64,000 bases of DNA from Botryllus schlosseri (Eukaryota): the NCBI GenBank assembly GCA_051294905.1, contig CM119375.1, positions 1,054,001 to 1,118,000 on the forward strand, given 5' to 3'. The position numbers were made by a program, and so were the translations under genes. Of the stretch, positions 5,301 through 8,300 are shown piece after piece (the first letter of the stretch is position 1; each line of letters begins with the position of its first letter). A model generated the notes under the pieces. It was given only the letters and a program-made list of their open reading frames with translations. It was not told the DNA's origin and did not search any database.

Positions 5301-8300
5301 TGCCAGATCACGTGAGGCAATCTAACCTTCTTTCGGTGAGGTGTAAAGATGAGCGGGGAGATTTCGAAATCTGACTCCACCCCGACTCGGGTTGCTAAAT
5401 CAAAGTCCAAAAAATCCGGCTGGCTCGTAAAGTCCTGTTATTTCCACATGTTGTGAGGGTAAAATACAGCATAAATCCGACTCTCAAGGCCATTTGGCCG
5501 CATCCAGACTGGCTTCGCTGAAAACTGATGAAATCTGCGCCGGGTCCGGAGATGTTTCGTGACCTCCTCCGTCCAGACAAGATTGTTCTGCTGTAATATA
5601 GGTGTCGTTGTATAATAATTTACGCCCAAGAAGACTTGGTATCGACCCTTTGGCGGAATTCTGTTTGGTTCGTCTGTACAGGTGTTATTAGTGCGATCAG
5701 ATTTGGCGCCTCAAGGAGTATATTGGTAAAAATCACACAACGATGACAATAACTTTACCGGTCAACATACGGTCAACGATGCGGTGTGATGTACGTAAAT
5801 CAGCTGTGATCAATCGAGCGTGACACAATCGCTGTCAGTCATCAATCTGCGACTTGACAAAACTCGCGTTTTTTGGGTTGACAGCAACGCGATATATTTG
5901 ATGTCCCCGTCGACCCTCCTAATAGGGTTACCATGCGGCCTCATTTAGGGGAGCATATGTCCTCCATTTCCCAGATATGTCACCCAATTCACCTAAATGT
6001 ACTCTCTTTCTGTCAGTTTGTCCTCCTTGTTAGCTCAACATTTCCAAAAAAAAACACCACAAGTAACGCAAAATGTGGGCCTAGATTACGAAAAGTCGGG
6101 TACGTAGCCAAATCGGAAAAATGACCCTATGATGGTATTGTGCAGGCTATTACGTGGATACGTGGGCGTGTGTAAACATGTGAATAGTAAAAGCGCCCCA
6201 AACTACCGTGAAAAAAGATCGAGCGCACTCGACCATGACGGGGCCACCTTAGTACAGCCAAATGATCCCGTGTCGTACCGGGAATAGCCGAGGTGGTGGT
6301 ACATCATTCTCACAAAATGTACTTTGGAACGCGTGTGAAATCGACATTGTCCGCTACTCGACTGACGCAAGTCGCCACTGCAGTCCCTCTCTGTGTATAC
6401 ACAATGTGCTGAGCACTGCAGATCCAGACGAGACTACGCATTCTGGCGAGGTTATCGAGATAGCTGGAGCGATTTACAACACATGCTACATTTACTTCAA
6501 ACGGAATGACAAAATATGGTTTTGGAGTACTCAAGTAGTTTTAAGGGAATGTCAGTATCGTGATATCGCTTTCTATCCTAATTATAAAAGAGTAGGTCCC
6601 CATAAAACTGTCGAGCTCAAGCACGTTGGTAACTGTGATAGTAGACAAAACTGACTCGAGTACCTCAGAAATTGTGACTGTATTTCGTTGCTGACCACGC
6701 GCCTGCTTATTCACACCGACTGACTCTCCTAGTAAGCAACTGCGCCCCCGTCATCTTCTTATTGCTCAAATAATTTTACAATTCACGAAATCCAATCTCA
6801 TTTGTCGATAGTTTTATCAGAACAAAAGTCACAGTTACACAAGTCTCGTAAATAGGTGTCGATACACTACAATCGTTTTATCGCCACTATTCAACTCATA
6901 GCCCGATCACACGACTGACGTTTCCGCAGATCAATTTTTGACGTTTGATCAACTCTTGCCTGGTTATGGGGTTTCTAATCACAGGGCGATTGAGATTAGG
7001 GTGTGTCTTTTCGATACGTTGCGCAAACTCGATACCTTTCGTTCGGAGTACGTATTCACACTGCGGAAACCATTTTGCATGTTCTGTCCAAACCTCGTCT
7101 TCACGGTCCCAACGAAGCCCGCCGTCACAGTAAAAGCATTTGGTTCTGTCCGAATCAACGTAGTAAAACCCCGCTTTTGCTAACTGTTCAACACTAGCTT
7201 TAATTTTATTCGGTTCCCAGCCCTTGTCGAACGTTGCGATTCTTTTTGACAACGACGACATGAGAGGGTTCACGGGTTTAAGACAAGGAAATAGTTGCTC
7301 AAGACATCGCCTTTCGTCCTCGGAGGGTTCCTCTGGTTCTTGCAGATGTAAAGTGAGACGTCGTATTTTGTCGTCAAGCAACTTATCCAAATTGTCTCGT
7401 TCGTACTCGGTTAACGCCACATTCCCCGAATCGTCGCCACGTGCGAAACAACAATCCGAGCGATACGTCAAGTGTATTTCAGATATATCGTCTGTAGGCC
7501 TCCAATTGCGTAGAACGCCGGAGCAGTTGAAGCACTGCGTTCTGTCCAGGTCACCGAGGTAGAATAAACCTTGTTTTGCCAACTCGCCGACCGCCCGTGG
7601 TATGGGATAGCTGGGCCATTTCTCAAAGGTTTCGCGACGCTCCGACTCCTTTCGCAAGTCGAGATTCCTAACCCGATACTCGTGCTCTTGATCAACGATA
7701 TTCGCAAAGTTGATGTTGGCGTTTCCAGCGGCTTTACACTGTCTCAGTAAACTTTTGAAATTCGATTTCACAATAGGTATGTTCAACGCGTCTCGTACAC
7801 AATTCGCGTCATGACGCCGTGCACTCGACCCGGTCCATCTTTCGAGGTACGCACTGCACCCAAAGCATTTGATTTTGTCTTCAAATCCTAGCCAGTAGTA
7901 TCCCTCAGACGCTAAATCGGTGCGTGTTGCGTATGATACTTTAGAGAATTTGGCGAACGTGGCGAGTCTGTATAATTCAGTGCGGTGTGAACCGGAAGCG
8001 ATATACACTCGTTTCTGTCCGGGCGGATCAGAGTATCTCTCCATTGACGTTATGCCAAGCTCTTTCATAAACATGGAGTACTAAGACAGAGCTTTTTGTG
8101 TCTAAACGTGTCCCATAGGTCAACCGAGTCGGCTCACACATATATTCCTAGTTTATCCTTGAGAGCTGTATAGATTACCGGTAGCTGTACTTTTATGGCT
8201 GATTGACAACCGTTAGCTGTCGCTATTGCACCATTTACATATGTTTTTACCAGGAGCGGGCAACTTCTGCAATCCGCGGGGTGTGTATAGCAGAGTACCT

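Follow-up and report, generated by a model that had tools for sequence, protein, structure and literature searches.

A host-derived, RING-less IAP is the sole long gene of palindromic Polinton-ended elements, putative helper-dependent satellites, in Botryllus schlosseri

Inhibitor of apoptosis proteins (IAPs) in Polinton-like viruses, cargo-bearing Mavericks and mobile Polintons without a polymerase are all known. IAP and Bcl2 homologues have been observed in adintoviruses and animal Polintons, and one supplementary map has an IAP label by a Mytilus entry (Starrett et al. 2021, PMC8502044). A 2026 survey ascribes invertebrate IAP expansions generally to retrotransposition and DNA transposons, with no mention of Polintons (PMC13159474). 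Here we analyze a 64,000-nucleotide stretch of the Botryllus schlosseri genome (GCA_051294905.1, contig CM119375.1, positions 1,054,001 to 1,118,000 of the forward strand; hereafter the window), in which an IAP open reading frame (ORF) with three BIR domains lies inside an element with Polinton ends. Across the genome this IAP is the sole long gene of non-autonomous palindromes that measure 13-15 kb and have Polinton ends. By their sequence organization these palindromes appear to work like helper-dependent Polinton satellites, and the window element falls outside the autonomous class.

A protein search of the genome with the IAP gave at least 107 matches at no fewer than 65 loci, falling into two families (the match lists for the IAP, polymerase and capsid are lower bounds, with 105 of 452, 36 of 348 and 99 of 293 candidates scored). 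Family A comprises at least 76 matches at 46 loci, with 30 inverted pairs that all point outward; family B, about 70% identical to it, comprises at least 31 matches at 19 loci, with 10 inverted pairs that all point inward. The palindrome arms are 4.7-7.4 kb long, lack core genes, and are 99.35-99.96% identical to each other in all 10 IAP-bearing copies measured; family-A copies compared with one another are 86.9-99.7% identical, that is, up to 13% apart. Among 20 satellite-type elements read at both ends the 6-bp target duplication is exact in 18 and has one mismatch in two. In one copy both arms contain, in mirror image, a fragment of a long interspersed nuclear element, whereas large one-arm insertions in two other copies are unmirrored, and arm-to-arm copying during replication therefore fits better than steady chromosomal conversion.

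The presumed helpers are autonomous Polintons of the same genome. One of them (G000:C12:24498074-24514544) is complete, with an rve integrase, an ATPase and a double-jelly-roll capsid; its protease and minor capsids are assigned by position and motif only. Family-A ends are 76-93% identical to those of helper family 1 and family-B ends up to 100% identical to those of helper family 2, cross-pairs being about 55% identical or less. The palindromes thus share termini and target duplications with autonomous partners and lack their enzymes, as expected of non-autonomous, helper-dependent elements, and from these ends and duplications we infer helper-driven mobilization. The protein-primed polymerase of the helper would copy the satellites and its integrase would insert them; displaced single strands would fold back into hairpins, one arm serving as template for the other. 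Jumping-back initiation of protein-primed replication has been tied to the AGT motif that is repeated at the element ends (PMC8097293). Without extra insertions the satellites measure 12.9-14.8 kb, against 15.0-16.5 kb for the helpers, and these close lengths make packaging in helper capsids a possibility.

The original prediction held that the IAP is cargo of the element around it. This stands insofar as the ORF sits inside a Polinton-ended element, but the gene is not cargo of an autonomous Polinton: none of six autonomous Polintons examined carries it (the DNA examined took in the polymerase stretch for four of the six), and of at least 37 polymerase matches that of the window alone has an IAP match at most 30 kb away. 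Only one of at least 100 capsid matches lies within 30 kb of an IAP match, and it belongs to a different Polinton nested in a family-B arm. Strict co-divergence of satellites and helpers can also be rejected, as the IAP synonymous divergence between families A and B (1.19; dS 1.1-1.2) is below that of four helper genes, which are saturated (pS 0.75-0.85). Since it is the lower of the two, the IAP moved between satellite lineages after the helpers had split. The nested Polinton is of another family (G000:C15:3416566-3431380; L148, L149), and a third Polinton family is represented by about 76 capsid matches at 47-49% identity among the matches listed.

Several other palindromes deserve mention. 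Eight further palindromes have the same ends without the IAP ORF, and three of these, ended like helper family 1, carry a C2H2 zinc-finger ORF at the center instead (L054:7528-8145, L056:8212-8670, L059:195-812). In two IAP-less palindromes (L046:4545-5109, L054:4887-5357) an inverted IAP upstream region is followed by 170-200 bp of antisense BIR2 sequence, which could give antisense RNA against the IAP. With the central loop as reference, the near-identical satellites L031/L032 and L033/L034 have their two terminal variants exchanged, which is what inversion between arms would produce. A third palindrome family, 14.9 kb long, AGTAGT-ended and with otherwise unrelated ends (G000:C1:3169799-3184686; L080:800-8500, L081:1-7186), carries one broken RING exon per arm, from the IAP clade treated here, and similar paired RING matches occur at several other loci.

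The window element (3222-18800) is a one-off recombinant of one satellite arm and a helper polymerase arm. Its features are as follows:

3216..3221, + strand: left target-site duplication TTCATT
3222..3470, + strand: left terminus, beginning AGTAGT; 100% identical to the left end of the palindromic satellite G000:C5:11672496 and about 90% identical to the window right terminus
3222..10790, unstranded: satellite-derived part (one arm and central loop of a family-A IAP palindrome); two palindromic copies match it at 99.7-99.8% identity over 7.57 kb
9605..10790, unstranded: central loop of the satellite palindrome (the unique part between the arms in complete copies)
10790..10791, unstranded: chimeric junction between satellite and helper Polinton; spanned by one of 40 scored genomic matches, the window itself
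10791..18800, unstranded: helper-derived part; 95.8% identical over 8.0 kb to the autonomous Polinton G000:C12:24498074-24514544
10791..11600, - strand: part of a spliced helper gene, cut at the junction; short CT..AC joints in RNA reads
11611..15489, - strand: polymerase ORF, 1292 amino acids; homologues carry PF03175
15603..16082, - strand: helper ORF of 159 amino acids with no family match
16476..17183, + strand: OB-fold protein of 235 amino acids, probable single-stranded-DNA-binding protein
18561..18800, - strand: right terminus, ending ACTACT
18801..18806, + strand: right target-site duplication TTCATT

Thus the element has the (AGT)2//(ACT)2 ends and 6-bp duplication of Polintons, and through its 1292-residue ORF a protein-primed polymerase, recognized by the PF03175 domain of its homologues; the ORF itself has no direct match in Pfam, PHROG or PDB. 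An ORF survey of 3222-18800 found no integrase, ATPase, protease, or major or minor capsid, the genes expected of an autonomous Polinton. The junction lies 31 bp before the turn-back point of the palindrome and has no clean microhomology. No RNA read or contig spans it, and in four of four runs all loose ends at 10791 run on into autonomous Polinton sequence.

Small transcribed or coding features also occur near the junction. The spliced helper gene (10791-11600, - strand) is transcribed, has introns of 54-61 nucleotides and lies downstream of the polymerase, its largest exon being without a Pfam match. The satellite loop includes a 35-codon ORF (10192-10299, + strand), similar in eight fetched loci at 83-100%, and RNA reads with a 32-nucleotide joint map nearby, at 10546-10579.

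The features of the IAP region are:

6896..8074, - strand: three-BIR, RING-less IAP ORF; 392 amino acids from the first ATG, 382 from the probable start Met11 (8044)
7799..7978, - strand: BIR1, with ascidian-type H-x3-C spacing by alignment
7691..7705, - strand: pre-BIR2 linker ANIVD, in ungapped alignment with GQVVD, the caspase-3/7 hook of XIAP (Val146, Asp148)
7451..7648, - strand: BIR2, with Ile where XIAP has Glu219
7049..7243, - strand: BIR3, without the residue at cIAP/XIAP position 309 and without one residue before the first β-hairpin
6810..6842, - strand: weak, out-of-frame trace of the C-terminal half of a RING (18.9 bits, about the 95th percentile of shuffles; suggestive only)

The ORF is free of stops and contains three BIR matches (Pfam PF00653, E 3.9e-46), in agreement with the domain count of the original prediction, which also described complete C-x2-C...H-x6-C ligand sets in BIR2 and BIR3; these are C181, C184, H201 and C208 in BIR2, and C313, C316, H332 and C339 in BIR3. 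The same source called BIR1 shortened. Its H-x3-C spacing and a 4-residue gap bear this out, yet all four ligands are kept (C70, C73, H88, C92), making all three domains BIRs with CCHC zinc ligands by sequence as well as by predicted fold. The H-x3-C spacing recurs in eight of eight aligned ascidian-clade homologues and differs in two fish cIAPs. The short spacing thus appears to be inherited from ascidian IAPs, and its interpretation as an adaptation of the element is rejected; only the further 4-residue gap is specific to the satellite family. In an AlphaFold model (mean pLDDT 83.8) BIR3 superposes on cIAP1 BIR3 at 1.2-1.6 Å.

For comparisons among copies we analyzed 53 of the 107 matches (30 best-scoring, 20 across the range and three from element fetches), one decayed copy being dropped from the family counts. 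Each of the 12 BIR zinc ligands is kept in at least 51 of 52 sampled copies. Codon 10 is a stop in five of 41 family-A copies, and nine of 11 family-B copies have Met at the place of Met11; because of these two observations Met11 is probably the conserved start, giving 382 residues. No intact RING pattern occurs in any frame of the window element, as the original prediction had it for the downstream sequence, and the protein is therefore not a RING-type E3 IAP. Right after the family-B stop a decayed, frameshifted RING relic is present in three of three copies tested. Taken one by one, its pieces just reach the upper end of the scores of 100 shuffles (maximum 22.7 bits), and the support comes from their colinear order. 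This relic suggests that a processed copy including the RING was captured and that the RING decayed afterwards; truncation at capture is disfavored.

The host genome has a tandem array of intron-rich IAP genes (G000:C12:7.16-7.55 Mb), in which the coding sequence of the nearest relative, the 7.23 gene, is split into eight separate blocks spread across about 20 kb. The satellite ORF is continuous where host relatives have up to eight coding blocks, as expected of a retrocopy lacking parental introns. In trees, from which the BIR1 exons of the host 7.16 gene were left out, families A and B form one clade (100/100) inside a clade of three host array genes and a full-length IAP borne by a retroelement (91/91). 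For the exact sister, approximately unbiased test values (p-AU) were 0.33 for the retroelement IAP, 0.315 for the host 7.23 gene and 0.161 for the host 7.16 gene; none of the three is rejected, direct relay via the retroelement being one candidate among them. The best database relatives are IAPs of Styela, Clavelina, Ciona and Phallusia (up to 44% identity over most of the length), and a scan of IMG/VR with the IAP gave no relative. The gene therefore appears to come from the intron-rich host IAP clade, with loss of its introns, most of the BIR1-BIR2 linker and a UBA-like region. The original prediction of an intronless gene captured from an intron-rich host accordingly agrees with both the trees and the exon maps. 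Its counter-scenario, a later independent insertion related to intronless host IAPs, does not fit: introns are present in the nearest host IAPs, and dozens of copies have the module to which the ORF belongs. No poly(A) tail or target duplication of its own is visible in the 250 nucleotides past the stop, but the capture dates back beyond a dS of about 1.

The retroelement mentioned above is a multi-copy element of at least 38 kb (e.g. G000:C10:14409935-14447974; L096, L097, L066, L067, L098; also L099-L101, L068, L069). It contains a gag-like CCHC ORF, a reverse transcriptase-RNase H ORF ending in a Tpt1 domain, two IS1595-like DDE ORFs, leucine-rich repeats, an E2 ubiquitin-conjugating enzyme, and ORFs of 851 and 1162 amino acids, with no integrase match. 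Its IAP, present in about 25 full-length copies, is intronless and has three BIRs plus a RING. Assignment to the Kuafuorterviruses was rejected, as those are mostly 5-6 kb long and have an integrase (PMC11673190). Three-BIR-plus-RING IAPs of the ascidian clade are also annotated in Endozoicomonas bacteria (P0014, P0066), on contigs of 167 and 273 kb; P0014 clusters with an IAP of Clavelina, which we read as transfer to a symbiont or contamination.

Between families the Nei-Gojobori ratio of nonsynonymous to synonymous divergence (dN/dS) is 0.157 at dS 1.08, with values of 0.16, 0.13 and 0.067 for BIR1, BIR2 and BIR3; within families it is 0.29 (A) and 0.25 (B). For polymorphisms the corresponding ratio (pN/pS) is 0.25 (A) and 0.13 (B) for variants shared among copies, and 0.47 and 0.52 for singletons. 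No stop occurs after codon 10 in 33 of 41 family-A and nine of 11 family-B copies (42 of 52). These ratios indicate that the three BIRs are under purifying selection. Of each RNA run 3-6% was read. The 3'-end depth on the two strands was 12.3 versus 0.22 in a single-cell run and 1.5 versus 0 in a second one, and was 2.6 in a bulk run; the favored strand is the sense strand, because the spliced minus-strand helper transcript is on the same strand. The IAP is thus weakly transcribed, from copies other than that of the window, and the possibility raised beforehand, that the ORF is unexpressed and evolves neutrally, does not apply.

Residues preceding and lining the BIR grooves suggest what the protein might do. 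In the linker before BIR2, Ile126 and Asp128 are invariant in 52 of 52 copies and align in register, without gaps, with Val146 and Asp148 of XIAP (1i4o), the residues that anchor XIAP on caspase-3/7 (PMC2373516). The canonical BIR2 groove (Glu219, His223) is altered, position 219 being Ile in 51 of 52 copies and 223 being Tyr (A) or His (B). In BIR3 the cavity positions 306, 308, 311, 314, 319 and 323 and Trp310 are kept and 309 is deleted in 52 of 53 copies; the cavity is lined by 306, 308, 309, 311, 314, 319 and 323 over Trp310, and both 219 and 309 are groove positions (PMC6360406). Host relatives have Gln at the Glu219 position and an intact 309. As tunicates are reported to lack caspase-9 and Apaf-1 (PMC13159474), the target of BIR3 is likely to differ from the vertebrate one. 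We propose that the IAP acts as a RING-independent death suppressor: its XIAP-type linker would block effector caspases, its inability to ubiquitinate itself would make it stable, and the altered BIR2 and BIR3 grooves would leave it less open to IAP antagonists. It would thereby keep alive the cells replicating satellite and helper DNA, tying selection to the element. This whole account, of palindromic helper-dependent satellites with a host-derived, selected IAP serving as a caspase brake that aids replicating cells, is the one we lean towards, with some reserve.

A number of observations weigh against it. In XIAP the BIR2 groove assists effector-caspase binding, and here this groove has lost Glu219. 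cIAP1/2 inhibit caspases poorly although they too retain Asp148, and DIAP2 requires its own RING to block death (PMC2373516); the hook alone consequently does not prove inhibition. Protein score was one of the criteria for choosing the copies behind the dN/dS estimates, and this lowers dN within family A. Expression is low, with a depth of at most 0.2 over the 5' half, and the RNA reads carry variants that are found together in four of 41 sampled copies and are absent from the window copy. Support for nesting in the host clade is moderate, a grouping with Styela IAPs not being rejected (p-AU 0.117), and no extrachromosomal or packaged satellite DNA was observed.

A far-reaching extension, which we offer tentatively and hold to be rather doubtful, is that endogenous Polinton viruses have true satellite genomes in the form of these palindromes. 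The palindromes would be self-complementary, padded by inversion to about helper length (13-15 versus 15-16.5 kb), packaged in helper capsids and able to switch helpers by end swap, and would supply an antagonist-resistant anti-death protein that the helper lacks, the whole being a two-component virus. The IAP would have been relayed from the host array by way of the giant retroelement, and the window chimera would be a step towards a gene-acquiring helper.

Among other readings of the protein, it might be a dominant-negative on immune or stress signaling, its BIRs occupying adaptors of the TRAF/TAB/RIP-kinase type, displacing RING-bearing host IAPs and damping NF-κB-type responses. Loss of the RING with conservation of all three BIRs (dN/dS 0.16, 0.13 and 0.07) would agree with this, as would the ELYRL helix of BIR1 and an Arg matching Arg48 on the TRAF2-binding surface of cIAP2 (PMC6360406), and RING-dependent function is the rule for most IAPs (PMC2373516). 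The cIAP2 Glu47 position, however, is Thr or Lys in the satellites, and the caspase hook is invariant; we consider this reading unlikely. The original prediction also suggested a stable sink for IAP-binding motifs (IBMs), in which the IAP would soak up antagonists and so free host IAPs. BIR3 is indeed the most conserved domain (dN/dS 0.067), its fold is predicted to be intact, and equivalents of Gly306, Leu307, Arg308, Trp310, Asp314, Glu319 and Trp323 are kept. Fixed changes in both grooves nevertheless weaken the suggestion, namely the deletion in 52 of 53 copies of 309, which lines the N-terminal binding cavity (PMC6360406), and the Ile for Glu219 in 51 of 52, and a sink now seems improbable.

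Selection could instead act at the level of the host, if a few domesticated, expressed copies served it (e.g. in budding or regeneration cycles) and the others hitch-hiked. The single RNA haplotype, present in four of 41 sampled copies, is compatible with this, and trans complementation among dozens of loci would weaken selection on single satellites. Purifying selection is seen, however, on variants common to many recent, dispersed copies of A as well as B, new insertions continue in each family (arms reach 99.96% identity), and the host has its own intron-rich IAP array; we regard this reading as quite improbable. That the ORF is a neutral passenger, or the chimera an assembly error, is very hard to credit: the junction occurs once and lacks RNA support, with the loose ends noted above in all four runs, but neutrality cannot be reconciled with dN/dS of 0.16 over dS 1.08, the chimera lies between matching TTCATT duplications, its two parents have no common junction sequence to mislead an assembler, and the RNA runs may come from other individuals.

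Elsewhere in the window, scattered exons with EGF, fibronectin-III and tyrosine-kinase matches (21614-42901, + strand) suggest an intron-rich Tie-like receptor kinase gene. An intronless class I methyltransferase ORF of 288 amino acids (26731-27597, + strand) apparently lies within one of its introns, and fibrinogen-domain repeats, three in tandem at about 1.5-2 kb spacing, occupy 46768-50492.

The palindromes offer a concrete route for large, dispersed, intronless IAP expansions in invertebrates: mobile satellites, not host loci, account for at least 107 IAP-like matches here, and a retroelement accounts for about 25 more. Helper-dependent Polinton derivatives with selected cargo would make selection on a non-autonomous element open to study. 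They also suggest that cell death stands in the way of Polinton replication, and provide a natural RING-less, groove-altered IAP suited to simple biochemistry.

A literature search, with subscription papers and Repbase mostly outside its coverage, found no description of Polinton satellites that are palindromic, lack core genes and carry a host gene under selection. The adintoviruses resemble the satellites in having an IAP within an element with Polinton termini; in the available maps it is drawn in gene-carrying elements, whereas the present IAP occurs twice in each non-autonomous palindrome, at 65 or more loci. The (AGT)2//(ACT)2 ends, 6-bp duplication and 12.7-24.6 kb size range described for Mavericks/Polintons (Barreat and Katzourakis 2021, PMC8097293) fit the present elements, and the helpers likewise have polymerase, integrase, ATPase, capsid and protease-like ORFs. 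The inverted repeats given there are 46-1447 bp long, in contrast to satellite arms of 4.7-7.4 kb. Cargo-carrying or polB-less Polintons (Widen et al., bioRxiv 10.1101/2022.07.12.499685; Igolkina et al., bioRxiv 10.1101/2025.02.07.637071) include host-derived cargo, polymerase-less mobile elements and gene-duplicating inverted repeats of about 2 kb; their cargo stands beside core genes and often keeps introns, and the duplicated genes are capsid and protease. The satellites differ in that nearly the whole element is palindromic and the only long gene is an intronless, selected IAP.

At the protein level, XIAP linker-BIR2, cIAP1/2 and DIAP2 (PDB 1i4o, 1i3o, 3mup; PMC2373516, PMC6360406) are alike in their three BIRs, the hook before BIR2 and the BIR3 fold. 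The satellite IAP is unlike them in having no UBA, CARD or RING, an H-x3-C BIR1, Ile for Glu219 and a deleted 309. The viral IAPs of baculoviruses, nudiviruses, malacoherpesviruses and African swine fever virus (A224L) are comparable as host-derived BIR proteins in DNA viruses, and many of them keep a RING. They are, however, only 12-43% identical to the satellite IAP in fold alignments. As its closest sequence relatives are instead the cellular IAPs of ascidians (44%), the satellite IAP probably represents an independent capture.

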